From NCBI GenBank assembly GCA_018402725.1, contig JAGYII010000005.1:11308-75307 (forward strand): a DNA stretch of 64,000 nt, in the 5' to 3' direction. A program made the position numbers and the translations under genes. This document shows, piece by piece, positions 23,667 through 63,017 of this stretch (position 1 is the stretch's first letter; each line of letters starts with the position of its first letter). Below the pieces are notes generated by a model that worked only from the letters and a program-made list of their open reading frames with translations, did not search any database and was not told where the DNA came from. The DNA comes from Candidatus Izemoplasma sp. GTDB lineage: Bacteria; Bacillota_I; Bacilli_A; Izemoplasmatales; Izemoplasmataceae.

Positions 23667-24277
23667 CCTTTGGGCTTAATCACAAGGGTCCGGTTCGGTT
23701 CTTCCCCTTCTGATGTTGTAGTAATATCACGCCACTCAGACAGTTTAGCGTGTACAATCCGGCGTTCATACGAATTTAAGTCTTTTAAGGTTGCGGCGAT
23801 TTTTGTACGAGCGACTTCTTTCGCAGTTTTTGTGGCTAGTATTTCGAGTTGGCGATTCCGGTTTTCTTTATAATCCCCAATATCTAATACCACTTTTACG
23901 TGCTCATCACTATAGGCAGACAATAAATTTCTTAAGTAGGTTTGAAAGCCTTGAAGGGTTTTTCCGCCCCGGCCAATTAAGAGGGGATTATGGGGGGAAT
24001 CGATTTTAAACTTATAGGTTCCAGTTTCGGTATCTTGTTCGGCTTGTACTTTGGATTCTATTTCTAAGTCATTCAGGGTTTCTTGTAAGAATTTGTATCC
24101 AAGATCTAACAAATTAACATTGACGGTTGCGGTAAATACCGCTGATTTTTTGAGTCCCAACATACTTTTTTTGTCTTCTTGTGAGAGGGAGATATATTGA
24201 GGATTAACTCTTAATTCAGCGGCCGCCATTTTTAAGGCTTCGGTGGAATCTTTAGCTTCAAAAGTGGTTTTTTTCAT
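23663..24277 (-). CDS. jag: Jag/KhpB-like RNA-binding protein (KH plus R3H domains).
   Basis: A 204 aa ORF sitting downstream of yidC, as in the Firmicutes origin cluster. It has a C-terminal R3H motif. Confidence 0.75.
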   Translation of the reverse strand: MKKTTFEAKDSTEALKMAAAELRVNPQYISLSQEDKKSMLGLKKSAVFTATVNVNLLDLGYKFLQETLNDLEIESKVQAEQDTETGTYKFKIDSPHNPLLIGRGGKTLQGFQTYLRNLLSAYSDEHVKVVLDIGDYKENRNRQLEILATKTAKEVARTKIAATLKDLNSYERRIVHAKLSEWRDITTTSEGEEPNRTLVIKPKG

Positions 24278-25137
24278 TAAGCAGCCTCCTTCATTTTTTC
24301 CATTTTCAAGGCGGTTTTTCTACGGTTTACATACGTTTGGAGGAATTGGAACCCATTTCCAATCACCCAGTAATAAGCAATGCCTAAGCTGGTATATGCC
24401 ACAGTCATAATCATAAACGTTAAGAAATAAGTCATGTACTTCATGGTGTTTTGGGTTTGGTTTTGAACGGCTGTTTCGTATTTTTTGTTTTTCGCAAATT
24501 CAGGTTTTTTCATTGAATAACGTTGCGAGAAAAACATCGTTAATCCGACGATAAGCGCAAACAATAAGAACGGCCAATTCGCAGCAATATTAAATCCTTC
24601 TTCTGGAATCGAAAGTAAATCTAATCCAAAAAAATTAAAGTTTAAATCCGGATTATTTACATAAGCATCGGTTAAAGGAATTCTTCTTACGGCTTGATAC
24701 ATCGCAATAAAGATAGGAAGCTGTAAGAACGGTAAGAAACATCCTAAAGGATTAATGTCATACTTCTTATAGATCTTCATTGTTTCAAGTTGCATCGCCC
24801 GTTTTGAAGCTTCATCGGTCTTACCTTGGTATTTTTCTTGAAGCTTGTTAAGTTCGGGTTGCGCAAATTGCATATTCGTACTCATCCCCGTGGTTTTTGA
24901 GTAGATGGGCCAACCTACCACCCGGATAATTAAAGTAATGAGAGATAGTCCTATGATGTAATAACCACCGATACTCAAGGCTAGAATACCTTCAGCAAGA
25001 CGTTCCACAATCCATTGGACCCAGCCCACCCCAATATCAGGTTGACCGATCGGTGCATCATATACTTCGGTACAGCCCACTAAGACGGTCATCATTAAGA
25101 CGATAACGCCGAGTGAAATCCATTTTTTCTTATTCAT
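24277..25137 (-). CDS. yidC: Membrane protein insertase YidC/SpoIIIJ (a lipoprotein).
   Basis: A 286 aa ORF with a lipobox (LVGC) and the 60 kDa inner-membrane-protein core. Its position next to rnpA supports the call. Confidence 0.9.
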   Translation of the reverse strand: MNKKKWISLGVIVLMMTVLVGCTEVYDAPIGQPDIGVGWVQWIVERLAEGILALSIGGYYIIGLSLITLIIRVVGWPIYSKTTGMSTNMQFAQPELNKLQEKYQGKTDEASKRAMQLETMKIYKKYDINPLGCFLPFLQLPIFIAMYQAVRRIPLTDAYVNNPDLNFNFFGLDLLSIPEEGFNIAANWPFLLFALIVGLTMFFSQRYSMKKPEFAKNKKYETAVQNQTQNTMKYMTYFLTFMIMTVAYTSLGIAYYWVIGNGFQFLQTYVNRRKTALKMEKMKEAA

Positions 25138-25480
25138 GTTTTTCTCCTTTGTTTAATCCGAGTTGGTGTAGACATTGATGAATATGTTTTTCTAATTCTT
25201 GAAAACTATATAAGTGGGCTGCCGGTTTGATTAAAACAAAATAATCAATCCCTGAATTTAACTCAAAAGCTCTGAGGATTTCTCGGATCCTTCGTTTGAC
25301 TTTGTTTCTTTCAACCGCGTTCCCTAATTTTTTGGGAACGCTCATCGCAATTTTAAAAATACCGGGATTTTCTTGTGGTCGCACGTAAATCGTGACCGCT
25401 CCTGATATTTTCTTTTTTTGATAATCAAGGACTTTCTTGATTTCAGCATTCTTTTTTAAACTGTGATTACGATTCATCAC
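25130..25480 (-). CDS. rnpA: RNase P protein component.
   Basis: A 116 aa basic protein immediately downstream of rpmH. Confidence 0.9.
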   Translation of the reverse strand: MMNRNHSLKKNAEIKKVLDYQKKKISGAVTIYVRPQENPGIFKIAMSVPKKLGNAVERNKVKRRIREILRAFELNSGIDYFVLIKPAAHLYSFQELEKHIHQCLHQLGLNKGEKHE

Positions 25481-25492
25481 GCCTCTATTTCT

Positions 25493-25528
25493 AAAAAAAA
25501 CACCTAAAAACGAATTCGTTTTCAGGTG
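25493..25528 (-). terminator. Hairpin plus U-run (an attenuator-type terminator) between rpmH and rnpA.
   Basis: CACCTAAAAACGAATTCGTTTTCAGGTG forms an inverted repeat, and A8 on the plus strand reads as U8 on the minus strand. Confidence 0.55.
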
Positions 25529-25548
25529 TTTACGGGTTTACAACGAGA

Positions 25549-25683
25549 TTATACGGTGAGACGTTTACGTCCTTTTTGACGACGTCTTGAGAGGACAGCT
25601 CTGCCAGTATGAGACGCCATGCGCGCTCTAAAACCATGAGTCTTAGCACGTTTCCGTTTATTCGGTTGATAAGTTCTTTTCAT
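25549..25683 (-). CDS. rpmH: 50S ribosomal protein L34.
   Basis: Not in the ORF track. My translation gives [44 protein letters not shown] (44 aa), preceded by a GGAGG RBS. Confidence 0.95.
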
Positions 25684-25782
25684 GGAGGCACCTCCTCTTC
25701 AACATTGTTAACTTGCTAGAAGATTATATATAATCTGTCTCTTTATGTCAACAATCATTTAAAATTCAAAATATTTTAGTTT

Positions 25783-25974
25783 TTTTCCACAATAAAATTT
25801 CGCTAATTATAGGCGTTTCCACATTTTGAATGGGGAAAAGGGGATAAGGGGATAACTCAAAATGGGTAAATGGGGAAAGCTACTTTTTTGCCTTTAACAA
25901 AGGGCTTTAGTAATTTTTTTAATGGGGATAACCCTGGTGGATTTAAAAAGTTTTCCACATTTTGTGGGGATAAA
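25783..25974. promoter_or_regulatory. oriC DnaA-box cluster upstream of dnaA.
   Basis: At least six matches to TTATCCACA in both orientations: TTTTCCACA at 25783, GTTTCCACA at 25815, CTTATCCCC/AGTTATCCC at 25840-25856, TTATCCCCA at 25923, TTTTCCACA at 25951 and TTATCCCCACA at 25964. Confidence 0.8.
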
Positions 25975-26037
25975 AAAACGTTTAACTCCCAAAAAAGTTG
26001 TGATAGACTTATTTCACTTAAGGTCAAGGAGGTCACG

Positions 26038-27402
26038 ATGGAATCAACTCATATGTGGAGTGAGATTAAAACTCAACTCGAACACGAAATTGAACCCGAT
26101 ACCTATCAAGAAATCTTTTCATCCATTGATTCTATCTATGAAGTTAAAAATAACTTTATCTATTTAATTGTGGCCAATGACTTTATTAAGCGTCGTGTTG
26201 AAATGCTTTATTTAAAAAAGATGAATCGACTCCTTGAAACATATGTCGAAGAAAAACATGAATTTCGTTTGATCACTGAAACCCAAGTCAATGAAAAGAT
26301 GAAGGCGAAGTTTGAATATGATGAAGGCGAAATTGATTCAGAAGAAGGCTACCAATCAAACTTAATCACCTCTTATACCTTTGATAACTTCGTGATTGGA
26401 AATTCAAACCGACTCTCTTATACCAGCGCTTTAAAAGTAGCCGATCAACCCGGAATTGTTGCAAACCCTCTATATATTTTTGGGGATGTGGGTCTTGGCA
26501 AAACGCATTTAATGCATGCCATTGGTAATTATATCTTAGAAGGAAACATTCACTCGAAAGTTTTATATTTAAAAGCGGATCAATTTGTTGAAGATTATGT
26601 CCGGCACGCAAACCGTAAAAAATATGTCGAATTTACGCATTTATACGCCAACATTGATGTTTTACTCGTCGATGACATCCAATTCTTATCTAAAAAAGAA
26701 AAATCGCAGGAAGAATTTTTTAAACTTTTTGAAAAACTTTATCAACAACAAAAACAAATTGTTATCTCCTCAGACCGAAAAGCCACGGATTTAAAAGATA
26801 TCATGGCGCGTTTAACTTCCCGGTTTGCTTGGGGAGTCAACGTTGATATCAACCGCCCAGAACTCGACCACCGAATTAAAATCCTTGAAAAGAAACTGAA
26901 TGCCGAAACCAGTGATCAAGATTTAGTTCCTAAAAAGGTTTTAGAGTACATTGCTTCCGTCTTTGATAACAACGTCAGGGAACTTGAAGGGGCCTTAAAA
27001 AGAGTTTTATTTTATTGCACGGCATTTAACCTTGAATTTACGATTAAAAATGCTGAAATGGCCCTTGAAAATCTGGTTAGACCGAAGGCAAACCATCGGG
27101 ATTTCATGAAAGATAAAATTAACCGAGTCATGAGTGTAGTCGCGGAATACTATAAGATTTCAGTGAGCGATTTGATTAGTAAAAAAAGAACCCGCAACTA
27201 TTTATATCCACGCCAAATGGCTATGTACTTAGTCAAACACTTATATGATGTTCCTTTTAAGCGGATCGGTGATTATTTTAACGGCCGCGATCATTCTACA
27301 GTCATGCACTCCGTTGAAAAAATTTATAACGACCAAACCATCGATTCAAACGTTAAAATTGATGTGGAAAAACTCTCTATAAAATGTGGAGAAAGTGATT
27401 AA
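26038..27402 (+). CDS. dnaA: Chromosomal replication initiator DnaA.
   Basis: AAA+ motifs (GDVGLGKTHL, VDDIQF) and a C-terminal DNA-binding domain. The start is placed at ATG 26038 behind an AAGGAGG RBS. The ORF track's 25870 start would run through the DnaA boxes. Confidence 0.95.
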   Translation: MESTHMWSEIKTQLEHEIEPDTYQEIFSSIDSIYEVKNNFIYLIVANDFIKRRVEMLYLKKMNRLLETYVEEKHEFRLITETQVNEKMKAKFEYDEGEIDSEEGYQSNLITSYTFDNFVIGNSNRLSYTSALKVADQPGIVANPLYIFGDVGLGKTHLMHAIGNYILEGNIHSKVLYLKADQFVEDYVRHANRKKYVEFTHLYANIDVLLVDDIQFLSKKEKSQEEFFKLFEKLYQQQKQIVISSDRKATDLKDIMARLTSRFAWGVNVDINRPELDHRIKILEKKLNAETSDQDLVPKKVLEYIASVFDNNVRELEGALKRVLFYCTAFNLEFTIKNAEMALENLVRPKANHRDFMKDKINRVMSVVAEYYKISVSDLISKKRTRNYLYPRQMAMYLVKHLYDVPFKRIGDYFNGRDHSTVMHSVEKIYNDQTIDSNVKIDVEKLSIKCGESD

Positions 27403-27522
27403 TTAACTCCTAGTTATATCGCGCTAACATGGTATAATATTAAAGGTTAATAAGGGTTATAAACATTTCCACAACCCCTAACAATAACAAGTATTAAATA
27501 AAAAGATTATAGAGGTGACATC
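27403..27522. promoter_or_regulatory. dnaA-dnaN intergenic origin segment: one DnaA box (TTTCCACAA at 27465) plus an AT-rich putative unwinding element.
   Basis: The box sits next to a run that is more than 75% AT. This spacer is where the DUE lies in Firmicutes. Confidence 0.55.
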
Positions 27523-28647
27523 ATGCAGTTTCAAATGAATAAAGACAAGTTACTCTATCATTTAGTCATTGCTCAAAAAGCCTTATCGAATAAAACTCCA
27601 AATCCAGCCTTAACAGGAATTAAAGTAGATGTCTTTAAAGATCGAATTTTATTAACAACCAGTAATGGTGAAATATCAATCTTAAAAACCATTACCGATC
27701 CTTCCTTACAAGTTGAAAAAGAAGGAACTGTTTTAATACCAGGTCGCTACTTCGTTGAAATCATTAGGAAGCTAGATGGTCAAAACGTTTTATTATCGGC
27801 CCACGAAAACAATTTATTAAAAATTGAAGCGGATCATTCAGACATTACGTTAAATTTATTGGATGTTGAAGATTATCCAAAATTATTATTTAAAGAGAGC
27901 GCCGAAAGCGTTAAAGTTAATGTTCGTGTTTTTAAAACCTTGATTCGCCAAACGGCTTTTGCAGCGAGTGGCGTTGAAAATCGTCCGATTTTAACCGGGG
28001 TTTACTTCAAACTTGACGGTAACCAATTAACTGGAATTGCCACCGATAGTTACCGCTTAGCTAAAAAATCGATTGAGCTTGATCAAATTTATGCCCCGAT
28101 GGATGTTATTATTCCCTCAAAATCCGTCGAAGAGCTTGGCCGAATTTTAGAAGATAATCAAAAAAGTGTTGAACTCCATTTTAGTCCTTCAAGCATTTTA
28201 TTTAAATATGACGATACCTTACTCTTATCTCGCTTATTAGAAGGAAATTATCCAGAAACATCGAAATTAATTCCCTTAGAATTTCCCCATGAAGTGACGT
28301 TCAATAAAGAACAACTTCTGATTGCCATCGAGCGGGCCAGTCTTCTTTCGAGTAGAGATGGTCAAAACGCCATCGTTAAACTTGAAATCAGAAATGATGA
28401 TGCGGTTGAAATTTCTTCATCATCCCCTGAAATTGGCCGGGTCTTAGAGGAAATTCAACCCGTTGCTGAAGTGAAGGGTAATCCTTTAAAAATAGCGTTC
28501 AGTTCTAAATTTTTATTAGACGCCCTCAAAGCCTTCAATTCTTCGGAAATTAAGGTTGGATTTACCGGTGAAATACGCCCCTTTGTGATGACGGGCGAGT
28601 ACGATCCAGACATGCTTCAATTAATTCTTCCCGTTAAAACAGATTAA
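27523..28647 (+). CDS. dnaN: DNA polymerase III beta sliding clamp.
   Basis: A 374 aa ORF at the conserved position. A hairpin plus T7 terminator follows at 28648-28671. Confidence 0.95.
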   Translation: MQFQMNKDKLLYHLVIAQKALSNKTPNPALTGIKVDVFKDRILLTTSNGEISILKTITDPSLQVEKEGTVLIPGRYFVEIIRKLDGQNVLLSAHENNLLKIEADHSDITLNLLDVEDYPKLLFKESAESVKVNVRVFKTLIRQTAFAASGVENRPILTGVYFKLDGNQLTGIATDSYRLAKKSIELDQIYAPMDVIIPSKSVEELGRILEDNQKSVELHFSPSSILFKYDDTLLLSRLLEGNYPETSKLIPLEFPHEVTFNKEQLLIAIERASLLSSRDGQNAIVKLEIRNDDAVEISSSSPEIGRVLEEIQPVAEVKGNPLKIAFSSKFLLDALKAFNSSEIKVGFTGEIRPFVMTGEYDPDMLQLILPVKTD

Positions 28648-28742
28648 GGCCTAGAAATAGGCCTTTTTTTATGCCATAAAAGTTTGCACAAACCCTCTAA
28701 TTTTGATATAATTTGCCTATATATAATATAGAAAGGCTCCCT

Positions 28743-28950
28743 ATGCAGACTGTGGTAATAACGACCCCTTATATCACCTTAGGACAACTTTTAAAATTTG
28801 TTGGGGTAGCCGCGACGGGCGGGGATATAAAAGAGCTCTTAAGGTCGCTTAAAATAACCGTCAACCAAGAACGAGATGAACGCCGAGGCAAAAAATGTTA
28901 CCCCGGTGATATTGTTGATGTCCCTAACTATGGGACATGGAGAATCACCC

Positions 28951-28961
<11 letters not shown>
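28743..28961 (+). CDS. yaaA: S4-domain RNA-binding protein YaaA.
   Basis: About 72 aa with an S4 fold, in the conserved dnaN-yaaA-recF position. The start was moved to the internal ATG 28743. Confidence 0.7.
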
Positions 28962-31934
<2,973 letters not shown>

Positions 31935-31942
31935 GAGAAAAC

Positions 31943-34537
31943 ATGGACGATCAAATTAAAGACCCCATTGAAGTGACCACAGACCGAATCAACGACATTA
32001 ACTTGACCGACGAAATGCGGACGTCCTTCTTATCCTATGCGATGAGTGTCATTGTCTCAAGAGCACTCCCTGATGTGAGAGATGGGTTAAAACCCGTCCA
32101 CCGAAGAATTTTGTTTGGGATGGAAGAACTCGGCGTTCAACCGGATAAAACCTATAAAAAATCGGCCCGGATTGTGGGCGATGTTATGGGTAAATACCAC
32201 CCCCACGGCGATAGTGCGATTTATGAGGCGATGGTCCGTTTAGCGCAACCTTTCTCAACGCGATACCCGCTTGTTGATGGCCATGGAAACTTTGGATCAA
32301 TTGACGGAGACGGTGCCGCTGCGATGCGTTACACCGAAGCTCGGATGGCAAAAATAGCCGCTGAGATGCTCGCAGACATCAAAAAAAATACGATTGATTT
32401 TGTCGATAATTATGACGGAAGTGAGAGAGAACCGTCTGTTTTACCGTCTAAATTTCCCAATCTTATCGTCAATGGAGCCACCGGAATCGCGGTTGGGATG
32501 GCCACCAACATTCCCCCCCATAACCTAAAAGAAGTCATTAATGGCTTACTTTTAATGCTCGATAACGCAGAAGTCACCCTCGATGAACTGATGGCGGTGA
32601 TTCCGGGACCTGACTTTCCTACGGGAGGTATTTTACTCGGACGGGCGGGGTTAAGAGAAGCCTATGAAACCGGAAATGGATCGATAAGAATCCGTGCGAA
32701 AGCGAACATTTCAGAAACCAAAACCGGAAAACAAATGATCACGGTCACTGAAATCCCCTACCAAGTTAATAAAACCCGATTGATTGAGAAAATTGCCGAA
32801 CTTGCTAAAGAAAAACGACTCGATGGAATTACCGATTTAAGAGATGAATCAAGCCGTGAAGGCATCAAAATCGTGATTGAGTTAAGACGGGACGTCAATG
32901 CGGAAGTGACATTAAACAACTTATACAAATACACCCCGCTGCAAACCAGTTTTGGAATCAATATGCTTGCCTTAGTCGATCAAAAACCGGAAGTCTTAGG
33001 GTTGGCCGATGTTTTAAGACACTATCTAACCCACCAATATGAAGTCTTAGTGAGACGAACCACCTTTGATTTAGGCAAAGCCGAAGAAAGAAAACACATC
33101 TTGGATGGGTTAGTGATCGCCCTTGAAAATATCGATGCGATCATTGAAATCATTCGAAATGCCTATGATGATGCTGACCAACAAATCATCGAAGCGTTTA
33201 AACTATCAGACGAACAAACCAAAGCCATTTTAGAAATGCGCTTAAGACGACTGAGTGGCTTAGAACGTGAAAAAATTGAAAACGAGATCAAAGAACTCGT
33301 TGTAGATATTGAAAATTTTAGCGCCATCTTAGCGTCGAAAGAAAAACAAACTGAAGTCATCAAAGAAGACTTAATCGCCCTTCAAAGTAAATATGACGAT
33401 GGCCGCAGAACTGAAATTTCCCTCGCCATCGATTTAGACATTGATGATGAGGACTTAATCCCGGTTGAAGATGTCATGGTCGTTATCACTCAAGGGGGCT
33501 ATTGCAAGCGGATGAACACCGACATTGCGAAGTCACAAAACCGGGGTGGGGTCGGCATTACGGGCCTTAAAACGAACGAGGATGATGCCCTTGAACACAT
33601 CATTATGACCTCGACGCACGATTACCTCTTATTCTTTACGAATAAAGGAAAAGTTTACAAGATGAAAGCCTACAAGGTGCCCAGTTATGGAAGAACTTCT
33701 AAAGGGCTTCCTATGGTCAACTTGCTCCCATTTGAAGAAGATGAATATCTCCAATCAGTGACGAATATTCAAGATTTTGATAGTGAAGAATACCTCTTCT
33801 TTACCACCAAAAAAGGCCGTGTTAAACGGACGGCAATCAATGCCTTTAAAAACATCCGTGCCAATGGAATTAGAGCGATTGAACTCAAAGAGACGGATGA
33901 ACTCCTAGCCGTTCGCCATACCAAAGGCGAACAAGAATTGATATTAGGGGCGTCTAATGGGAAAGCAATTCGTTTTAAAGAGACCGATGTTAGACCGATG
34001 GGCCGTACCGCTGCCGGAGTCATGGGGATGCGAATTAAGGCCGGAGATGAAGTGATTGGAACGGCCCTCATTGAAAACGATGAGCAAACCATTTTAGCCG
34101 TGACATTAAATGGCTATGGTAAGCGCTCAAAAGCATCCTTATATCGTCTCCAACAACGAGGAGGACAAGGGGTTAAAACGGTTCAAGTGACCGAAAAAAA
34201 TGGTCCGCTTGTCAAACTTCGCGGGGTAAACTTAGAAGATGATTTAGTCTTGTTGTCCAACAAAGGAATGATGATTCGCCTGCCACTTGATCAAATCTCA
34301 GAAACCGGAAGAGCCACCCAAGGCGTCCGTTTAATGCGTCTTCAAGAAGGCCATCAAATTGCGAACATTGCCATTGTTCCAAAAGAAGAGGAAAAAGACG
34401 AACAATTGACGTTTGTAGAGGTGACTCCACCAAAAGAACCTTTAATCGTTGAAGAAACCCCACTAGAAACAGAAACCCAAGAAACAGAAACCAAGAAAAA
34501 ACCAGAAAGTCTATTTGACCTACTCGACGAAGAGTAA
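31943..34537 (+). CDS. gyrA: DNA gyrase subunit A.
   Basis: An 864 aa ORF with the active-site Tyr region (AAMRYTE), the QRDR ([10 protein letters not shown]) and an acidic C-tail. Confidence 0.97.
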
Positions 34538-52177: not shown

Positions 52178-52336
52178 CTCTTACATTTTAGATGTAAAAA
52201 ATTTACATTTAGCCAAAAATCAAGTCATCAAGCGATGCACTGATTTTTGGTTAATTTTTTGAAGGATTTTTCCAAAAATTCAATGATTTTAAGTTATAAT
52301 ATAATGTTGATAAAGCAAGATTTAGGAGATAAAAAC

Positions 52337-53398
52337 TTGGAAATTAAAATTCAGAATTTAACCAAAGTTTTTACGAATAAAAAAATGACCGAAACCGTAG
52401 CAGTTGATCATCTTGATGTTACCATTCCATCAGGAAAATTGATTGGTCTTTTAGGCCCCTCTGGTTGCGGGAAGTCGACCACCTTATATATGATTTCTGG
52501 ATTATTAAAACCTACCGATGGCAAGATTTTTTTTGGCGATGAAGACGTGACTAACGTTCCGCCAGAAGATCGAGGCATCGGTTTAGTTTTTCAAAATTAT
52601 GCCTTATATCCTCACATGACCGTTCAACAAAATATTTTATTCCCATTAGAAAATCTTAAAGTTCCAAGACCTGAAGCAATGGAAAGAGCACAAAAAATTG
52701 CTGACCTTGTAGGTATTGGAGAGTTAATGAACCGTAAACCTGTGCAACTATCAGGGGGTCAACAACAACGTGTTGCTATCGCTAGAGCCTTAGTCAAAGA
52801 ACCCCGTGTTCTATTGTTAGATGAACCCTTATCAAACCTTGATGCTCGCTTACGTTTACAAACACGCGAAGAGATACGTAGAATTCAAAGAGAAACTGGA
52901 ATTACCACGATTTTTGTTACCCACGATCAAGAAGAAGCCATGTCTATTTCTGACGAAATTATCTTGATGGACTTTGGGGTTATGAAACAAAAAGGGGCTC
53001 CTCAAGAAGTGTATGATAATCCAACCAATTTATTCTCGGCCCGTTTTTTAGGAACGCCGCCGATAAATATCTTTAATGGTGAGATTTCTGCCGGTAAAAT
53101 TAAACTTGGAAAGTCGAACTTAGGAACCACCGATGTGAAAAGCCAAAACGTGGTAATTGGGATTCGTCCTGAAGGCTTTAAAGTCGATCCTAAGGGACCC
53201 CTTAAAGTCGAAGTAGAATTTGTGGAAACCATCGGTCGCGATACCACGCTTTTAATCATCGATCCAACGGACCCAACGAAACGTTTCCGTGGAATCATTG
53301 ATGCCGACTATAAAGTCGTAGCCGGCGATACGATTCAACTCTCCGTTAAACCGCACAAGATGTTTATATTTGATCCTGAAACGGGGGAAAAACTATAA
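52337..53398 (+). CDS. CUT1-family ABC importer ATPase (MsmX/MalK/UgpC-like with a C-terminal TOBE domain).
   Basis: Walker A GPSGCGKST, signature LSGGQQQR, Walker B and a C-terminal regulatory domain. The probable TTG start at 52337 sits behind AGGAGA. The ORF track extends to 52247. Confidence 0.85.
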   Translation: MEIKIQNLTKVFTNKKMTETVAVDHLDVTIPSGKLIGLLGPSGCGKSTTLYMISGLLKPTDGKIFFGDEDVTNVPPEDRGIGLVFQNYALYPHMTVQQNILFPLENLKVPRPEAMERAQKIADLVGIGELMNRKPVQLSGGQQQRVAIARALVKEPRVLLLDEPLSNLDARLRLQTREEIRRIQRETGITTIFVTHDQEEAMSISDEIILMDFGVMKQKGAPQEVYDNPTNLFSARFLGTPPINIFNGEISAGKIKLGKSNLGTTDVKSQNVVIGIRPEGFKVDPKGPLKVEVEFVETIGRDTTLLIIDPTDPTKRFRGIIDADYKVVAGDTIQLSVKPHKMFIFDPETGEKL

Positions 53399-54325
53399 AT
53401 GTTAGAAGATAAAAGTAATATTAAAGCCTGGCTTTATTTAGCTCCTGCGCTTATTTTATTGACCATATTTATCTTTTACCCCATTATTAATGCATTATTT
53501 TTAGTGATTTTAAGTGACTATAATTATCTCCAAGGAACGTGGCAAGGATTTACGTTAACTGATAACTTTGTATATGTATTTAGAAACCAAAATTTTATCC
53601 AAGCATTGACTAACACCATGTTAATAACGTTTGTATCGGTACCTGTTTCAGTTACTCTTTCACTGTTTGTCTCGGTGTGGCTGAATTCAGTGGCTAAATC
53701 TAAAGGCTTTTTCCAAACCATCTTTTTCTTACCTTATGTCACCAATGCGATTGCGATTGGGATGGCTTTTGCTTTTTTATTCAACCGAAACTTTGGCCTT
53801 ATCAATACCATCTTAGGGTGGGTCGGATTAAACCCTGTAAACTGGGTTGGACTCGGCGCAACTTGGGGGAACGCGATGTTTAGCTTACTCGTGTATGTGG
53901 TATGGGGATCGCTTGCGTTCAAAATTATGGTGTTTTTAAGTGGACTCCAAAATATCGATAAACAATATTATGATGCAGCTCGTGTTGATTCTACTAAAAA
54001 GGGACGCATCTTTAGACGGATTACCGTCCCCCTCTTATCACCGATGATTTTTTACATCACCATCACTTCGTTTATTGGTGCCTTTAAAGCGTACACCGAA
54101 GTGATTGGAATGTTTGGCGAACGATTAGGTCCCCCTGGAAATGATAAAGCGCTGATTACCGTGGTGGCTCTTGTCTATGATGCCTTAGACCGATCTGGGG
54201 TGCCTGGTGCTTTATCAGAAGCCGCGGCCACGGCCATTGTATTATTTGCAATTACCTTGATTTTTACATTAATTAACACGCGAATTTCAAAGAATCGTGT
54301 ACATTATGCAGGGGGGGCAAAATAA
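53399..54325 (+). CDS. ABC transporter permease (UgpA/MalF-type).
   Basis: A 308 aa ORF with 6 TM segments and the EAA loop region. Confidence 0.8.
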   Translation: MLEDKSNIKAWLYLAPALILLTIFIFYPIINALFLVILSDYNYLQGTWQGFTLTDNFVYVFRNQNFIQALTNTMLITFVSVPVSVTLSLFVSVWLNSVAKSKGFFQTIFFLPYVTNAIAIGMAFAFLFNRNFGLINTILGWVGLNPVNWVGLGATWGNAMFSLLVYVVWGSLAFKIMVFLSGLQNIDKQYYDAARVDSTKKGRIFRRITVPLLSPMIFYITITSFIGAFKAYTEVIGMFGERLGPPGNDKALITVVALVYDALDRSGVPGALSEAAATAIVLFAITLIFTLINTRISKNRVHYAGGAK

Positions 54326-55218
54326 TGGCCGCTCAGGTGCAAAACTTATACGGAAACGAGAAACAATTAAGACGCCAATTCATTCTGCGTCAAACGTATG
54401 TTTTTACGATGTTGATTATATTCTCAATCATCGTCATCATTCCTTTTTACTGGATGATATTAACAGCGTTTAAAACCGAAGCTCAAGTATTTACCTCTCC
54501 ACCCATCCTATGGTTAACCGAACTCAACTTTAGTAATTTTGGGGCCGCCATGAATGCAGCGCCGTTCTTAAGATATATGGGAAATACCGTCGTCGTCTCG
54601 TTTTTTTCAACGATCGGAACGGTGATAACAACAATCTTTGCAGCTTTTGCGTTTGCGAGACTTAACTTCACAGGTCGTGATGCGATCTTCATGTTACTCA
54701 TTTCAACGATGATGATTCCCGGAGAAATATTCGTCATTACCAACTTCTTAACGGTGGTTGAATTTGGCTGGATTAAAGATCAAACCTATACTACCGCTTT
54801 ACTTGCTATGACGATTCCTTTTATGACCAGTATCTTTTACATCTTCTTCTTAAGACAAAGTTTCAGACAAATTCCAAACGAGCTTTACTATGCGGCTAAA
54901 GTCGATGGTACAAGTGACTTCAAATATCTAAGAAGAGTGATGATTCCGATTGCGATGCCGACCATCATTACCATTACTATTTTGAACGCTATGGGAACCT
55001 GGAACGCCTATATTTGGCCAAGATTGGTCACCCAGCGTCAAGAATTTGGACTGGTGTCTAACGGGTTAAGAAATGCTTTTAACGACTTGGCTGGCGTGGT
55101 CGCTTATAACGAACAAATGGCCGCGGCACTCCTGGTGACGTTCCCGCTCTTAGTCGTGTTTTTACTTCTAAAAAAATATATTATCCGCGGGGTTTCCCGC
55201 AGTGGAATAAAAGGTTAA
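54325..55218 (+). CDS. ABC transporter permease (UgpE/MalG-type).
   Basis: A 297 aa ORF with 6 TM segments and an EAA motif (YYAAKVDGTSDFKYLRRVMIP). Confidence 0.8.
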   Translation: MAAQVQNLYGNEKQLRRQFILRQTYVFTMLIIFSIIVIIPFYWMILTAFKTEAQVFTSPPILWLTELNFSNFGAAMNAAPFLRYMGNTVVVSFFSTIGTVITTIFAAFAFARLNFTGRDAIFMLLISTMMIPGEIFVITNFLTVVEFGWIKDQTYTTALLAMTIPFMTSIFYIFFLRQSFRQIPNELYYAAKVDGTSDFKYLRRVMIPIAMPTIITITILNAMGTWNAYIWPRLVTQRQEFGLVSNGLRNAFNDLAGVVAYNEQMAAALLVTFPLLVVFLLLKKYIIRGVSRSGIKG

Positions 55219-55243
55219 AAAAAACTTTAGGAGGATACCTATT

Positions 55244-56610
55244 ATGAAAAAAGTATTAAGTTTTATCGCAGCCCTTGCGATGGTGCTGAGCTTATCGGCG
55301 TGTTTAGCCGGAGGAGGCCGGGAAGAAGCGGTTGTCGACATCCCAAATGAACTCCCCAATGTACCCATAGAAATCGTGATGTGGCATGCGTTTGGCCAGG
55401 CCAATCAAGATTTACTCCAGGAAATGTTTGACAGTTTCCGTTTGATTTACCCTCAAGTCACGATCATTCAAGTGAGTCAAGGAGGCTATGATGGTCTTCG
55501 TGAATCCACGATGCAAGGGATCGTTTCAGGTATTACCCCAGTTATTGTCATGGGTTACCCAGATCATTTTGTAGAGTATTTAAATGGGAATGCTTTAGTC
55601 CCTTTAGATGAGTACATCAATCACCCAGAACACGGGATTGATCTAGAAGATTTCGTCCAAGGGTTCTTAGAAGAAAACCGTCAGTATCTGGACGGTAAAC
55701 AATATTCATTACCCTTTGCGAAATCAGCCGAGATGATCGTTTACAACAAAGACTGGTTTGATACACAAGAGTATTACATATCAGAACCATTCCATTAACA
55801 TGGGCGGAACTTGAAGAGTCCTTGCAGAGACCATGGTGGGTTCAGGACCTAACCAATGTGATTTCTTATTTAACGCGGACTCTCGGCTAACTTCTTTATT
55901 AATTCAACCCGTCAATGGGATGCAGGGTATACCAATGAAGGACAAATCCTCATCGACAACCCTCAAACCAGAGAAATGTTGTCTTACTTTGAAGATTTGT
56001 TTGAACGTGATGTTGTGGCCTTCCCGATTGAATGGGAAGAAAATTACAGATCGATTCCTTTTAAACAAGGAAAAGTGTGTATGTCCCAAGGCTCTACCGC
56101 CGGAACGCGTCATAACGTACCTGGTGCTGATGATGCCTTTACGAATATTGGCATAATTCCTGTCATTCAAAAGGCTTAGACAATCAACACGCGATGCAAC
56201 AAGGACCCAATGTTGCGATCATTTCGAATGCCGATGACAACCAACGTTTGGTATGGCTCTTATTAAAACACATGACTTCGACTGAAAACACGGCTGATTT
56301 TGCGATGGCTACGGGCTACGTTCGGTCGTATTTCAGGTTTGAAACGCCCGAATATCAAACGTTCTTACAACTCGTTAACCGTCATGAAGCGGGTGAAACC
56401 TTAACCCCACAGAACAGTTCAGTTACCCTTCTCAATGGCGGCTAATGTTGCTTTTACGCAAGTGAACGTATCGTTTGACAGCGCCTTTGTCGGACGTGTG
56501 ACTTCATCAGGGGCAAGACGTGAAGCGGGCCTTGCCTTTGAAGCCGATATGCAGGAACTAGAACCGTTGAAAGAAGCCATTAACAGAATGTTAAACCAGC
56601 TCAGACAATA
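55244..56610 (+). pseudogene. Decayed ABC substrate-binding lipoprotein with at least 5 frame disruptions.
   Basis: An intact lipoprotein signal (LSLSACLAGGG) and about 185 aa of SBP-like sequence end at the TAA stop at 55796-55798. SBP-like segments then continue in other frames (TWAELEESLQ..., GYTNEGQILIDNPQTREMLSYFEDLF..., MSQGSTAG..., and the C-terminal ...EADMQELEPLKEAINRMLNQLRQ), broken by stops. Confidence 0.8.
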
Positions 56611-56644
56611 ATCTAGTTAGGATGATTTTAAATGAAAAACGTTC

Positions 56645-57410
56645 ATGATTTTGATGTTCATCCTGATGACTTTTGCCCTGACAGCCTGTCAAGAGACCCC
56701 TGCAGTCGAAGAAGGGCCCACCGTCATTAGTTATCCAGTGGACAGAAGCCTTGACCTCAAGCGGTTGAATATGAAAATCGTGAGTTCTTTAGAAGATGGA
56801 ATTGGGAAGTCACCCTCGACCGGTGTGTCGATGGGGATACGACCTTCTTCCAATCAGGGACCAGTCGCCCCTTCAGTGTTCGCTATATTGGGATTGATAC
56901 CCGTGAGTCCACGACTCGTGTGGATGCGTGGGGGATGCCTGCAAGTTTATTTGTTTGTGAGATTTAGAAGGAGCTACCACGATCGTCTTAGGAGCGAGAC
57001 AGAGGCCGTTGGCAGCAAAGATAACTTCAGTAGCAGGCTTGCTTATGTATGGGTGGATGGCATCCTAATTAATCTACGCTTAGTGGAAAGCTTTACACCC
57101 CGCGGTGGGTGCTGGGGTCTTGAAATACAGCGATGCCTTTTAAGAGCTCAACAACACGCGATGAGTACTGGACGACATTTTGGGGTGAAACCGATCCGAG
57201 CTTTGACGGTGAGCCTTTAAGTATTAATACGATGGAAGAACTCTTTGAGAATAAAGAATTGTATGTCAATCAGTTTCTTAAATATCACAGGCGTGGTGAC
57301 CGAAGTTTCAGGCGCAACAGATTCAGGATCAATGGGGGCGAGGATATTCTTGTCTATGCAGAAATCAAATTCCTGCGACCATAGCCGATGGTTTATACCC
57401 GGAAAAACTT
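56645..57410 (+). pseudogene. Staphylococcal-nuclease (SNase)-like lipoprotein remnant.
   Basis: The lipoprotein signal MILMFILMTFALTAC is in frame A. The catalytic-core motifs VTLDRCVDGDTTFF...VRYIGIDTRE...WGMPAS lie in frame +1 and end in a stop. The C-terminal RLAYVWVDGILINLRLVESF is back in frame A. The catalytic IDTPE is mutated to IDTRE. Confidence 0.7.
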
Positions 57411-57509
57411 TAAAGGCAACAATATTTATAACGAATTTTAACAACCAATGGCAACTCACTAATTTTATTATCAGAGCGTCGAGTTCCTAGGTGTATCCAG
57501 GAGGAAAAA

Positions 57510-60116
57510 ATGAAAAAGTTATTTTTGGCCATGTTAATGGTCATGGGTTTTAATGACTCTCTCGCGACCTGTGGTGGCGAGACTGACAGACCCGTAAATG
57601 AAGGAATCAAACGTTGGTTATTAACGCGAGAGATTCGTTGATTATCCAGTTTAGACAGGGTGGTAGGAAACTTGAATCCTACCTACAGAGTCATGTGGAA
57701 CTACCGTTGTGGAAGCATCATCTAATCAGTCATTTCTAACACTGGGGCTATTTACACGTCAGAAGTAGGAGAAAAGTAATGCAGTGGTAACCGAATTGGC
57801 TTGACCGTTTCCTTTGAATGAAGCAACGGCGACAAGAACCTTTGAAGCTCTTGTTATTGCTCAAGAACCATCCTAACTCGTTTTACAGAATGGCCTGCTC
57901 TTTATGAGGCTTCAAATTATTAATGATCTTATAACCATTGAAGTTGTCTCCAACGTCTTTGACGGCGGATTCTTTGTTTTTGATGGCGCTTATCATCTAG
58001 GTGTTTACATTGGATCAGGCGGAACAGGCGTAGTCACTGTGGGTGATGAAGTGAGAGTCACCGGAACTTATGCCCGTTACTATACGCTACCAACTAGATA
58101 CCATTGAAGAGACCGTTATTTTATCGCAAGGAAATGAAATCCCGACGTTCAGTAACACCGATCATCGAATTTCAATGACTTAGATTTGGAAGACCTCACT
58201 TGTTCATGGGCAATTCTATGAATTGACCGGGACCCTTGTTCAAAAGGAAATAATAGCAACTTATATTTAGAGTAGGAATTCAGACAGAAAGTGCTTGGTG
58301 TACTACTATTCAGATGCGGCTTCGTTAGAAGTAGCAATCCGTTGTGGCAGAACCATTACGATTACGCCCACACTATACCCTTCACAGCACCAACGGAGTG
58401 ATGATGTCATTCCGCGGTGATGGGGATGATGTTCATTTGTTGCTGAATTATCAGAAAACTCAAAATTAGAGCTTGATAAAAACGTATTATTAGGAACTCG
58501 TTTCTTAACGTTTGGCGACGCGATTACCTTACCAGACTGGGGTAAACGGGACCGTATTTAGTAATTGGGCTTCAGTGATGCTACGCTCGTAGGAAATGAC
58601 AGGGCCTATGTTGCGACGCCTGAAACGCCAACTAACGTTACATTCACCGTGACCGCAACTAATGGAGGAAATCTCCGAAGAATTAACAGTAACAGTTCAT
58701 TCATTGGCGGAAATTTCCATTGAAGATGCTTTAAAAGTAGCTCCGGGTGGGTTTATTTATGTTCACTGGTAAAGTCGTTGAGATTATTGCTAGAAACAGT
58801 GGTTTTTATGTCTATGATGGTACCGGTCTTATTTACGTAAGAGATACCGCTTTCTGGGGTGAAAACAATTGAATCTGTCGTCATTGGAATTCTTGGACCT
58901 TTGTCGGTGCAAGAGGCTTATTCCGCGGGTTGCCTCAAGTTGAAGCATTGAGGATTGAGTGGAAACTTCAACTGAAACCTTGCGGACGATCCTTTACTTG
59001 GATTCACACCCTTGAGATATTAGAAAATGGAAACATCATTCCGGGTGGACGTTGCTCAATTTGTGGAACAGCCACCATTGTTGAAGGCCATTCACGGATT
59101 ACCGTGTTCGAAGCAGGAGCTCCTTCACGTTCAACTTCACCATAACGCAAATAACAATGCGATTGCAGACTTTGCGGGTCAAGAAATTCTCATTTGAAGT
59201 GCGCCCCTTCCAATGGGATAGTGAAGCCCCATTTGTAAGCATATACTAAGACCGCTGAAGACGTCAGCGTGAACCTAACTTAAGCTCAAAAGATGAGTTA
59301 GCAGTGGTCACCGCTGCGACGAACGCAAACGTATTTAGAACGGTCAGAGAAAACTTAACATTAGCCACTGCTGGATTATTTGATAGCACTGTTAGCTATT
59401 CATCCAGCAACACCAATGTCGTAGCGAATGATGGAACGGTGACTTTTGGAGCTGAAGCAACCGAAGTGACCTTAACCATTACCGTCGGAAGTTTCTCAAA
59501 AGCATACGTTCTCAACGTGGCTCAAGCTTCTTTAAATGTTAAAGAAGCCATCGAAATTGAAAATGGAGAAGACGTCTTGGTGCGTGGGGTGGTCGTTAGT
59601 ATCGATCCTCATACCAACGGATTCTTTATCCAAGATGCAGACGGGGCCGGTATCTATGTAGGTAATTTTGGAACAGACGATCTTAAATCAAAAGTAAAAG
59701 TAGGAGATTTAGTCTGGGTCTCAGGAGTCAGAGATACCTTTGCCCGCTTTGGTAATAACCAAAACCAAGTATGGACGGCAAGCTTAGTTGAAGTGGTTCG
59801 TTCAGGCGTTGAAGTCTTTGTCTTTGAAGGATTTACAGTGGATCAAATTATTACTGATTATCCAACCAGTGATTCTAAACGTTTCATCGTAGAAGATGTC
59901 ACTATTGATTTTTATGATAACTTTAGCCATGTATTCTTAACGAATTCAGATGATGCTCTAGAAATCCAAATCAAGTTTGACATCCGCCAGGTGGCGGCAG
60001 GATGGGATCCTGAAGATTATCCAGAAGGAACTGTCTTAACCTTAGCTTTCACCACTCAACGGATCGACTTTGACAATTACCGTGTGGTCGATGTCGTCAT
60101 TATCACCGAAGAGTAA
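57510..60116 (+). pseudogene. Remnant of a large multi-domain surface lipoprotein with repeated OB-fold (tRNA_anti-like) and bacterial Ig-like domains. Only the last 270 codons (59304-60116) remain as an ORF.
   Basis: A lipoprotein start (MKKLFLAMLMVMGFNDSLATCGG, RBS AGGAGG) is followed by multiple stops. OB-fold-like blocks in broken frames include FFVFDGAYHLGVYIGSGGTGVVTVGDEVRVTGTYARYYTLP, GGFIYVHW/KVVEIIARNSGFYVYDGTGLIYVRD and GFFIQDADGAGIYVGNFGTDDLKSKVKVGDLVWVSG. Ig-like blocks include TFTVTATNGG and ...VTFGAEATEVTLTITVGSF. A strong terminator follows at 60124-60152. Confidence 0.65.
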
Positions 60117-60195
60117 TCAACAAAAAGGGGCCACTCAGTGGTCCCTTTTTTAAACAGACTCATTGTGGTATGATGGTGTGTTAAAGAGGTGAACG

Positions 60196-61116
60196 ATGTT
60201 TAAAAAAGCGATTATAATTCTCATTCTTTTAACCATTTCAGGCTGTCAATCAAGCGAGTTTAGACTCCCGGATTTAGAAGGTAAAACACGCTCTGAAATT
60301 GAGCTCATTTTCAGTGAGATAGAATTAGATATCGATTTTATCGAACGTACCTTTGTGATTGAAAATCAGTCTAATCTCTTTATTGAATACGGCATGTTTT
60401 TAAATAGTGGTGATATCCTTGAACCCGGATCATATGTACCCATTATTGTCAGTGCTAGTTTAATTGATGACTCAATTTACTTTGTTCCACAGTCCATTCC
60501 TTATGATGGTCCCCGTTTAGATCAGCAATTTTTTGAGCTTGAATTAGCCATTCGAAATGAGACCTCGGTTCGAGGGGTTGGAGGCGCTTTTTATGTAGAA
60601 CTCCAATCGGATGGATGTGTCGATGGAGATACCGCAAAGTTCATCGTCCCAGAAGCCATGGTTACTTTTACGAACAACCCCTATGTCAGAAGTCGCTTTT
60701 TAAATTTTGATACCCCTGAGACATTCTCAGGAGGCGAACAAGAATTTGGTCAACCCGCTTCTCAATACGCATGTGAGCTTTTGATGAACGCTTCTCAAAT
60801 TGTTCTTCAAACCGATCCAGGGGATAATTTATTTGATCGCTATGGTCGTCTTCTCGCCTGGATTTGGATTCAAAACGGGGATGAACCTTTTGAGCTATTA
60901 AACTACATGATGGTAAGACAAGGACTTGGCGTGGTGAGATACTTATTTGGAGCCGGTGAAACCAATGTCACGGTATTTGATGGTTTAACGTATACAGAGT
61001 GGATGTTCCTTGCTGAAGATAGAGCCGTCAAAGATCAACTGGGTCGCCATGGAGACTTCTTAGATTATTATTGGGACTATGATAAAGACGCCCCTAATCC
61101 TTATACATGGCCTTAG
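60196..61116 (+). CDS. Intact SNase-like (thermonuclease family) lipoprotein.
   Basis: A 306 aa ORF with the lipobox LLTISGC and SNase motifs (CVDGDTAKF, FLNFDTPE, YGRLLAWIW...MVRQGLG). Confidence 0.8.
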   Translation: MFKKAIIILILLTISGCQSSEFRLPDLEGKTRSEIELIFSEIELDIDFIERTFVIENQSNLFIEYGMFLNSGDILEPGSYVPIIVSASLIDDSIYFVPQSIPYDGPRLDQQFFELELAIRNETSVRGVGGAFYVELQSDGCVDGDTAKFIVPEAMVTFTNNPYVRSRFLNFDTPETFSGGEQEFGQPASQYACELLMNASQIVLQTDPGDNLFDRYGRLLAWIWIQNGDEPFELLNYMMVRQGLGVVRYLFGAGETNVTVFDGLTYTEWMFLAEDRAVKDQLGRHGDFLDYYWDYDKDAPNPYTWP

Positions 61117-61125
61117 GAGAAAATC

Positions 61126-62067
61126 ATGATTAAAACGATTCAAGAAAAGATTGAAGCCTATTCAACCATTTTGATATTCAGGCATTTAGAAGCCGATTAT
61201 GATGCCCTTGGATCTCAACTCGGCTTAAAAGCTTTAATCCAAGAAAACTACCCGGGCAAACAAGTCCTTGCTTTAGGTCAAGATAATCAATTTGATAGCC
61301 TAGGTAAGATGGATCACCTTCAAGAATTTGAGGGAGATAAGACTTTAGCGATCGTGGTGGATGTCGCTCAAACGCACCGTATTGATGACGAGCGATTCTT
61401 AAAGTGTCAGGAAATTATCGTGATTGATCATCATCAGAATGACAGTGATTGTGCAACGCTATTTTGGCAAGATAAAAAAGCCATTGCCGCCGCTGAAATG
61501 ATTACACATCTTGCAATAAAATTAAACTGGAAATTCAACTCCCAAAGCGCCAAAGCCCTTATGATGGGCCTTGTTTCTGATAGTGGTCGATTCTTATTTA
61601 AAGGAACTCGTGTAGAGTCATTTGAGGCTGCAGCAACCCTATTAAACCAAGGCCTTGATTTGGATGAAATCTATCAGTCCATGTATACAGAAAATATTGA
61701 AATGAAGCGATTAAGAGGCTATGGACTGAGTACATTTACGCTTTTAGATTCAGGCGTCGCTTATTTAAGAAATGCACCAGACATCAAACGTCGTTTTAAT
61801 GTATCAGAGTTTTCAGTGAGCCGTGGATTAGTCAGCGTCATGGGGCAAATAAAAGGGGTTCATGCCTGGGTTAACTTTACTGAAACCGATGAAGGAGAAA
61901 TCCTCGCAGAGATCAGAAGTGCCAGCGTCCCTCTAGATGATGTCGCTAAAAGTTATGGAGGTGGCGGCCATCAACTCGCCTGCGGATGTACATTACATAG
62001 TTGGCCCCAAACGCAAGAACTCATCAACGCCATTGAAAAGAAAGTAGGCACTCATGACCTTAAATGA
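61126..62067 (+). CDS. nrnA: DHH-DHHA1 phosphoesterase NrnA (nanoRNase / pAp phosphatase).
   Basis: A 313 aa ORF with DHH motifs I-III (HLEADYDALGS, VVDVA, DHH) and the DHHA1 GGGGH motif. Confidence 0.8.
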   Translation: MIKTIQEKIEAYSTILIFRHLEADYDALGSQLGLKALIQENYPGKQVLALGQDNQFDSLGKMDHLQEFEGDKTLAIVVDVAQTHRIDDERFLKCQEIIVIDHHQNDSDCATLFWQDKKAIAAAEMITHLAIKLNWKFNSQSAKALMMGLVSDSGRFLFKGTRVESFEAAATLLNQGLDLDEIYQSMYTENIEMKRLRGYGLSTFTLLDSGVAYLRNAPDIKRRFNVSEFSVSRGLVSVMGQIKGVHAWVNFTETDEGEILAEIRSASVPLDDVAKSYGGGGHQLACGCTLHSWPQTQELINAIEKKVGTHDLK

Positions 62068-63017
62068 AAAGTACCAACAAATGTATGAAAAGATTAAAGC
62101 CTATAAAAAGATTATCATTACCCCTCACGCTAGGCCCGATGGTGACTGTTTAGGCAGCGCCCTCGGTTTAAAAGATATCATCCAAAATACGTTTAAAGAG
62201 AAAGAAGTCTATGTCAGCGGGGAATCTACCGGCTACTTAGAATTTTTAGGAGCCCTGGATACCTTAGAGGATGACGTTTTAAAAACGCTTTTAGTCATTG
62301 CGATTGTTACAGCAAAGACCGAATTGCGGAGAAAGATTTGACCAAGGCGTATTTAATTAAGTGGATCATCACATTTTAGTCGATTCCTTTGGGGATTTAC
62401 GAAAGTGTGGATGAATCCTCCCCCTGCCGCTGCTCAAATGGTGGTTGATTTTATTTGGCAGACCAAGACAGCGAAATGAGTCCTCAAGGGGCTTTGGCTT
62501 TATATACAGGGATTCTTACAGATACGGGGCGGTTTAAATACGATGGAGTATCTGCTAAGACTTCAAAGCCGTCGCAGAACTTTATGAACAAGGACTCGAT
62601 CCAAGTATCACCCATAAAGCACTCGATATCATGAGTGAAGAATTGATTCGTTTTAAGGGCTATGTTTTACTCAACATGAAAAAGACCGTAAATGGTGTGG
62701 TCTATATCAAAATCACCGACGAACTTCGTCAAGAATTTAAAGTTACCACCGAAGAAGCTTCAAGCTTAGTTAATGAACTCGGGCATTTTGAAGATTGTCC
62801 GATTTGGGTCTTGATGGCTGAGTACGAAGAAAAGATTGTTAGAGCGAGAATTAGGAGTAAAGGACCCACTATTTCTACCACCGCCAACTTGTTTGATGGC
62901 GGCGGTCATGCCAAAGCATCAGGCGCTAATTTAGGAACTTGGGATAAAGCGGAAGAACTTCTCAAAGCCCTTGATGGTGTTGCTAAAGAATATAAAGAAA
63001 ATCAAAAAGAGGCATAA
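62054..63017 (+). pseudogene. Second nrnA-like DHH-DHHA1 gene split across three frames.
   Basis: Motif I (HARPDGDCLGSALGL) is in frame 2 at 62054-62341. The DHH-domain segment ALALYTGILTDTGRFKY is in frame 1 at about 62491-62640. The DHHA1 C-terminus (DGGGHAKASG) is in frame 0 at 62631-63017. A terminator follows at 63008-63032. Confidence 0.7.

Follow-up and report, generated by a model that had tools for sequence, protein, structure and literature searches.

We analysed a stretch of 64,000 nucleotides (hereafter the window) from contig JAGYII010000005.1 of the Candidatus Izemoplasma sp. assembly GCA_018402725.1, in which a run of genes for an ABC importer, surface lipoproteins, SNase-type nucleases and DHH/DHHA1 phosphoesterases is interrupted by frameshifts and stop codons. 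The first-pass annotation of this DNA had described three consecutive shattered genes set among clean ones, and both parts of that description were borne out. The first 55.2 kb of the window hold about 50 genes, all of them uninterrupted open reading frames (ORFs), and on the + strand between 55.2 and 60.1 kb there are short ORFs only. Translation and tblastn with intact orthologues revealed in the latter segment three successive + strand genes with repeated reading-frame switches, namely those of a family-1 substrate-binding lipoprotein (SBP), an SNase-domain lipoprotein (SNase A) and a large surface lipoprotein. An ABC ATPase and two permeases lie upstream of them, and a second SNase gene (SNase B), two DHH/DHHA1 genes and an OmpR/PhoB-type regulator lie downstream, so that the locus reads as follows:

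52247-53398, + strand: ABC transporter ATPase (MalK/UgpC-like), intact; Pfam ABC_tran (2.1e-37) and OB_MalK; 0 indels against the related contig L084
53399-54325, + strand: ABC permease 1, intact; Pfam BPD_transp_1; identical protein in Logan assemblies
54325-55218, + strand: ABC permease 2, intact; Pfam BPD_transp_1; identical protein on 7 independent contigs
55244-56608, + strand: SBP gene, 460 aa when intact; Pfam SBP_bac_8 and SBP_bac_1 in the fragments and in intact alleles
about 56632-57490, + strand: SNase A gene, 291 aa when intact; traced by tblastn frames, with Pfam SNase on the intact allele
57510-60116, + strand: large surface lipoprotein gene, 874 aa when intact; three Pfam aBig_2 domains on intact alleles
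60122-60151, + strand: intrinsic terminator 3' of the large lipoprotein gene, a hairpin followed by UUUUUU; conserved in the related contig L002
60196-61116, + strand: SNase B gene (SNase-domain lipoprotein), intact; Pfam SNase; 100% identity to Logan contig L001
61126-62067, + strand: DHH/DHHA1 phosphoesterase 1 (DHH1; NrnA/RecJ-like), intact; Pfam DHH and DHHA1
62054-63017, + strand: DHH/DHHA1 phosphoesterase 2 (DHH2), 324 aa when intact; here broken into ORFs of 95, 59 and 128 aa
63149-63814, + strand: OmpR/PhoB-type response regulator; Pfam Response_reg and Trans_reg_C

The terminator that the first-pass annotation had placed at the end of the block was recovered by RNA folding as a hairpin with a U-tract (dG -18.8 kcal/mol, z = -5.2), and this hairpin was missed by a consensus terminator scan. 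Among the gene identities proposed there, the substrate-binding protein, the SNase and the Ig-like surface lipoprotein were all supported by Pfam, and the OB-fold assigned to the last of them was not detected by Pfam in this protein.

The gene order of the locus is not peculiar to this genome. When permease homologues were scanned in a collection holding one genome per species, the best matches (77-80% amino acid identity) came from Ca. Izimaplasma and Izemoplasmataceae metagenome-assembled genomes, which places the window in Ca. Izemoplasmatales. That collection contains no conspecific genome, yet many metagenome contigs at 88-99% nucleotide identity are available from ENA, JGI and Logan. In the sister genera (L005, L006, L007 and L029) the gene order is identical and all genes are intact, with an SBP of 462-477 aa, an SNase of 288 aa and a large lipoprotein of 879 aa followed by SNase, DHH, DHH and the regulator. 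The same order, at the same chromosomal position, was found in the closer relatives L084, L096 and L097, and thus the comparison with sister strains and species which the first-pass annotation had proposed did yield intact versions at the same place. The chromosomal replication origin also lies within the window (24277-34537), with yidC and rnpA on the - strand, dnaA-dnaN-recF-gyrB-gyrA on the + strand from 25870 and the minimum of the cumulative GC skew at about 21-25 kb, near dnaA. In 35 species loci with at least 7 kb of sequence downstream of the permease, the SBP follows in 35 of 35, an SNase in 27, the large lipoprotein in 15 and both DHH genes in 13. One of these loci belongs to Acholeplasma laidlawii (L072), with an SBP, the DHH pair, a large lipoprotein and an SNase after the homologous permease; since parts of the locus are thus present in cultured Acholeplasma, the arrangement predates Izemoplasmatales. 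In A. oculi (L077) we noted an SBP and the DHH pair after the homologous permease. The underlying genes are therefore best explained as the usual DNA-scavenging locus, passed on vertically, of a wall-less marine bacterium of the Izemoplasmataceae. The locus is one already known: Wasmund et al. (2021, PMC8289736) described it as the 'DNA-degradation locus' of Ca. Izemoplasmatales.

This conservation bears directly on the origin that the first-pass annotation had assigned to the block, namely a GC-rich module for binding and degrading nucleic acid that was laterally acquired and is now decaying. The frameshifts it relied on are present in the record, and GC is indeed mildly raised; however, windowed GC put the block at 43.6%, and not at 47-57%, with the window as a whole at 40.2% (+3.4 points), and only 31% of the block's 60-nt samples reach 47%. 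A rise of this size is within the range found elsewhere in the window, where the block ranks 9th among 237 windows of 4.9 kb and the segment at 30-33 kb reaches 44-46%. Moreover, the intact orthologues have the same GC as the block, gene by gene (0.445-0.450 for the SBP, 0.45 for the SNase and 0.42-0.43 for the large lipoprotein). As for signs of mobility, the window has no tRNA gene, no direct repeats flank the block (the sole repeats are short and lie within paralogous genes), and no mobility gene or integrase was present, every ORF of the block being accounted for. Megablast of the block against a phage collection returned 0 matches. Lateral acquisition is contradicted by the conserved synteny of the locus, which is found intact both in sister genera and more widely across Izemoplasmatales and Acholeplasmatales, and we regard it as hardly credible.

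To see what the broken genes look like in the nearest strains, we collected eleven contigs from the same species complex by exact-protein and cluster look-ups and aligned them to the window segment by segment; nine of them extend to the damaged genes. Nucleotide identity to the window was about 93% for L084, 94.8% for L088, 96.3% for L089, 86% for L094, 88% for L096 and L097, and 90.6% overall for L095, which rises to 97.2% in 59326-60116; L085 and L087 are 99.4% identical but end at 55290-55296, and L098 and L002 are further members of the complex. Among sequencing runs, SRR14300309 has a contig that matches 59991-61267 of the window at 100%, and SRR31326380 and SRR31326366 match the window at 99.4% as far as about 55290. 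The SBP (460 aa), the SNase (291 aa), the large lipoprotein (874 aa) and DHH2 (324 aa) are full-length in all contigs that cover them, the SBP being intact in L084, L088, L094 and L096-L098 and DHH2 in L084, L096 and L097. Clusters formed at 90% agree with this, as nearly all of 24 SBP members have 460 aa and six of seven DHH2 members have 324 aa. Each comparator (L084, L088, L089, L094-L098 and L002, and likewise L005 and L006) carries 0-2 mostly in-frame indels, against 61 plus nine in the window, and even intact alleles that stand 9-12% apart differ by 0-3 gaps per several kb. A scan of JGI metagenomes with the intact SNase A protein gave relatives at 37-38% only, which were of no use for strain comparison.

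The same alignments showed that the alleles of SNase A and the large lipoprotein are mosaic (56900-58618): L094 and L084 are 99.5% identical in 56900-57500 and 72% in 58101-58618. Such mosaic alleles suggest frequent recombination, diversifying selection on the big surface protein, or both. Short-read assemblies of relatives seem to break repeatedly around here. The Logan contigs L085 and L087, which come from different runs, both end some 50 bp inside the SBP gene, and the ENA scaffold L084 has a gap of 100 Ns (14696-14795) in the large lipoprotein gene, corresponding to 58979-59310 of the window. It may be noted that the JGI contig L002 has, near its position 1172 (59787-59799 of the window), a single 13-bp deletion in the large lipoprotein gene, and its product P0003 therefore ends out of frame; a lone lesion of this type is what one would expect of a young real pseudogene or of a short-read error.

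Placed along the window, the indels that occur in the window only fall into two tracts, whose borders lie inside genes:

55684-59300, no strand assigned: noisy tract 1, with 61 window-only indels and clustered substitutions
62286-62561, no strand assigned: noisy tract 2, with nine window-only indels (62310-62561) and no excess of window-only substitutions, in the DHH2 gene

The block of decay had been drawn in the first-pass annotation at 55244-60152. Damage does run through its interior, from 55684 to about 59300, but the gene ends at both sides are clean and the second tract lies outside those coordinates altogether. The indels of tract 1 (55782-59287) comprise 37 deletions and 24 insertions, all of 1-6 bp, which together alter the length by -35 bp; the SBP gene has 12 of them (9 frameshifting), the SNase A gene 16 (15 frameshifting) and the large lipoprotein gene 33. 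The SBP gene is clean up to 55683 and broken from 55782, leaving its first 440-540 bp undamaged, the SNase A gene is broken along its entire length, and the large lipoprotein gene is broken as far as 59287, its last 813 bp (59304-60116) forming an intact ORF. Outside the tracts we counted 0 coding indels against L084 in 44.3-55.7 kb, 0 in 59.3-62.3 kb and 0 after 62561. Such a distribution is far from even, with none of the 12 SBP events in the first 538 bp (P = 0.002), none of the 33 events of the large lipoprotein gene in its last 816 bp (P = 4e-6) and all nine DHH2 indels inside 252 of 963 bp (P = 1.5e-4). Within the 3.6 kb of tract 1 there are no clean islands, and its load amounts to about 2% indels plus about 7% substitutions. 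In 59324-60450, which covers the 3' ORF of the large lipoprotein gene and the start of SNase B, third codon positions account for 30 of the 41 window-branch changes. Neither the lesions nor the signs of relaxed selection extend over the whole of the broken genes, as they should in a pseudogene.

We argue that this apparent decay is uncorrected noisy sequence, laid in two tracts of one assembly over a normal haplotype, a reading to which we give a probability of roughly 70%. Localised assembly indel errors had been offered as a fallback in the first-pass annotation, and it is this explanation that the evidence favours, its cause being one that we infer from the pattern. The first line of evidence is that the haplotype under the damage does not change where the damage starts and stops. 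In 55397-55683, just before tract 1, the window differs from the intact allele of L088 at 1 of 287 sites; after 55684 it is still L088-like, with window-only changes on top. At the other border, L095 is the closest allele on both sides of 59300, at 86% with many gaps inside the tract and at 97.2% with 0 gaps outside. On these alignments, the underlying haplotype is L088-like on the 5' side and L095-like on the 3' side, and runs on across both borders.

The continuity matters for the chief alternative, in which the genes are genuine pseudogenes, lost at some earlier time, whose ends have since been overwritten by homologous recombination with the intact alleles of close relatives. The mosaic alleles speak for frequent recombination, and this could have replaced the ends of genes already dead, but at least four intragenic recombination junctions would be needed, and each time the donor would have to be the nearest relative of the decayed haplotype. 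The absence of clean islands in the 3.6 kb tract and the intactness of about 50 neighbouring genes also argue against such a history. Furthermore, an old bacterial pseudogene is expected to show deletional bias. The excess of deletions (37:24) has a natural look in this respect; however, each of the 61 indels is 6 bp or shorter, and their net effect on length is only -35 bp.

The second line of evidence is the clustering of the changes. Successive window-only substitutions are adjacent in 39% of cases against 3-20% in other alleles, window-only changes have a variance-to-mean ratio of 2.5, substitutions crowd near indels (P = 0.0005), and many runs of 'substitutions' look like offsetting indel pairs. 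Merging events no more than 5 bp apart left 61 events that contain an indel, against 39 isolated substitutions and 26 clusters of several substitutions, a ratio of about 1:1. Mutation-accumulation lines of seven bacteria gave 2.8-9.7 substitutions per indel, with 4.2 in the mollicute Mesoplasma florum (Sung et al. 2016, PMC4978911), and the merged spectrum is thus unlike natural mutation. Tract 2, with nine indels and no excess of substitutions, is still further away (P about 1e-6 at the lowest natural ratio). Deletions of one base hit non-repeated bases in 8 of 18 cases, and 29 events, nearly half, are non-repeat events of 2-6 bp; sizes and contexts of the indels fit noise. The strong clustering, the many apparent offsetting indel pairs and the composition of tract 2 all sit badly with genuine decay. 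A further alternative is that a natural process of localised hypermutation, such as error-prone repair synthesis or the uptake of damaged DNA, scrambled the two tracts, which would account for the sharp borders, the clustered changes and the high density of lesions regardless of gene borders. But the changes carry no strand or base signature, GC-to-AT and AT-to-GC changes being 20:17 and 10:7, as in the flanks, and the pattern is confined to one record. No bacterial process known to us would produce about 2% indels together with about 7% substitutions across 3.6 kb, and we consider hypermutation very improbable.

The third line of evidence is that the lesions are unique to this record. All seven fragment ORFs on record occur on one NCBI contig only, whereas independent assemblies contain exact copies of eight of nine intact neighbour proteins (Fisher P = 0.0014). 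A search for the out-of-frame ORFs among 5.8 billion clusters found nothing beyond the one record, and when the broken ORFs and DHH1 were looked up by exact match in public assemblies, none was on record outside NCBI. That the lesions appear in no other assembly, though flanking proteins recur exactly elsewhere, weighs against genuine pseudogenes as well, if with limited power.

The most plausible way for noise to have come to be confined to these tracts would be as follows. These surface-protein genes differ greatly between co-occurring strains, and because of this variation short-read assembly or polishing may have failed here; low-coverage sequence, from noisy long reads or a collapsed consensus, would then have bridged the stretch or stayed in it, while correction reached the rest of the contig. 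The breaks of the relatives' short-read assemblies in this region count as further evidence for noise.

Several observations weigh against noise as the explanation. Before merging, window-only substitutions and indel events stand at 262:62, about 4.2:1, which is inside the natural range and equals the value of Mesoplasma florum, and the transition:transversion ratio of about 1.7 in the tract is similar in the flanks. Neither of these two ratios tells the hypotheses apart. The share of substitutions is also higher than expected for typical raw nanopore or PacBio error profiles. Window-branch substitutions in the SBP tract reach 5.3-6.3%, no significant excess over the neutral reference of 2.95% from four-fold sites (7 of 237; P = 0.057), a neutral-clock comparison that is weakened because the ancestry of the alleles is mosaic. 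The damaged genes are functionally linked, which is also compatible with a real loss of function, the mosaic alleles imply recombination frequent enough to make sharp borders in principle, and the sequencing or assembly cause is itself deduced from the pattern of changes. Several of these points can be counted in favour of genuine pseudogenes, for which the raw ratio of 4.2:1 and the transition excess look natural, and the four genes that are hit belong to one pathway. Also, the rate of window-branch substitution in the tract agrees with neutral change over the time since the window diverged from its closest intact alleles, and substitution-only events on the window branch are 2-4 fold above those of other alleles in the tract, as relaxed selection predicts. 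Taking both sides together, we hold old gene loss followed by recombination to be unlikely, though not negligible.

Should it nevertheless be the case, the strain would have lost the half of the locus that captures and cuts at the surface, namely the SBP, one SNase, the large lipoprotein and one DHH enzyme, but would still have the core of the importer, its second nuclease and the regulator, a scenario that we think rather improbable. With equal reserve, such a strain could be pictured as a natural 'cheater' that lives on breakdown products set free by its neighbours and whose gene ends recombination repairs piecemeal. Real lesions would represent a rare natural case in which a specialist DNA degrader has lost the public-good part of its extracellular DNA-degradation system, and an example of recombination patching pseudogenes. 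If, as we favour, the lesions are an artefact of sequence quality, the record wrongly adds four pseudogenes to an organism whose niche rests on these very genes, false ideas of 'gene loss' or of a 'GC-rich island' enter comparative work, and the two tracts should be re-polished or masked. Either way, the comparison showed that the surface lipoprotein genes are unusually mosaic between strains.

The function of the locus can be outlined from its domain content together with the cited literature. The surface SNase lipoproteins would cleave nucleic acid outside the cell, where the large aBig_2 lipoprotein is the probable holder of the polymer, and the family-1 binding lipoprotein with the ABC importer would take up the products, of which short oligonucleotides may be finished inside the cell by the DHH/DHHA1 enzymes. 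The Pho-type regulator and phosphate transport genes would come last. In relatives, a PstS-like protein (PBP_like_2) and phosphate-type permeases do follow the regulator (17962-21383 in L096), and the window stops before them; the presence of the regulator and phosphate genes in relatives is a hint that DNA scavenging is tied to phosphate supply.

As regards the large lipoprotein, it is built of three units, each consisting of an aBig_2 domain and a module of about 190 aa, which is rare, with 55 matches in 1.84 billion representatives, and is found in large multi-repeat surface proteins, one of which (P0174) has a lamin-tail domain. Pfam did not detect an OB-fold (tRNA_anti-like) in the large lipoprotein, and a search of the C-terminal module at E-values up to 10 gave nothing; homologues show sub-threshold OB-fold scores, 25.6 bits for tRNA_anti_2 (cut-off 27) and 24.9 for BOF (cut-off 25.8). 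Among PDB profiles, the N-terminus of an EEP nuclease gave the best match (E = 0.022). An AlphaFold2 model of the intact 270-aa C-terminal ORF, made from a 3-sequence alignment, had a pLDDT of 39.6 and was unusable. As evidence that this protein binds nucleic acid these matches are weak, and its part in holding the polymer is put forward as a probable one.

Finally, the locus and its damage may be set beside known cases. Residual error patches in draft and metagenome assemblies, left by unpolished long reads or by collapsed-strain consensus, resemble the tracts in their dense indels of 1-6 bp, clustered mismatches and sharp limits, with the remaining contig clean and the lesions in one record only; the tracts differ from them by a higher share of substitutions than would be expected of raw nanopore or PacBio reads. 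Old bacterial pseudogenes, for example those of reductive genomes, likewise combine multiple frameshifts and stops with readable motifs and more deletions than insertions, but the lesions here are not gene-wide, large deletions are lacking, the surroundings are intact and the de-clustered ratio of substitutions to indels is about 1:1 and not 3-10:1. As to the genes underneath, the DNA-degradation loci of Ca. Izemoplasmatales comprise secreted nucleases, phosphohydrolases, an ABC transporter with its binding subunit, phosphate transport and a large nucleic-acid-binding surface protein of 1,049 aa (Wasmund et al. 2021, Nat Microbiol, PMC8289736, Fig. 6). The present locus has an Izemoplasmatales host, two co-localised SNase genes with lipoprotein signals (60196-61116 intact and 56632-57490 broken), an adjoining ATPase, two permeases and SBP at 52247-56608, two DHH/DHHA1 genes and, in L096, a PstS-like gene with permeases after the regulator. 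It differs in that four genes are frameshifted in this record and that the large protein has 874 aa and aBig_2 domains without a nuclease or lamin-tail domain, against 1,049 aa. In mycoplasmas, operons that join an SNase lipoprotein to a sugar-type ABC transporter are known from M. agalactiae (MAG_5030-5070) and M. hyopneumoniae (mhp379), their proposed role being to feed the breakdown products of nucleic acid to the importer (Cacciotto et al. 2013, PMC3585158). The likeness to this MAG_5040/mhp379 type, which concerns the genes, lies in a surface SNase (TNASE_3) and a family-1 'sugar-like' binding lipoprotein beside an ATPase and two permeases; in the present locus, however, the transporter comes first, there are two nucleases, a large aBig_2 lipoprotein and two DHH enzymes, and the bacterium, in contrast to mycoplasmas, is free-living and uses the standard genetic code.

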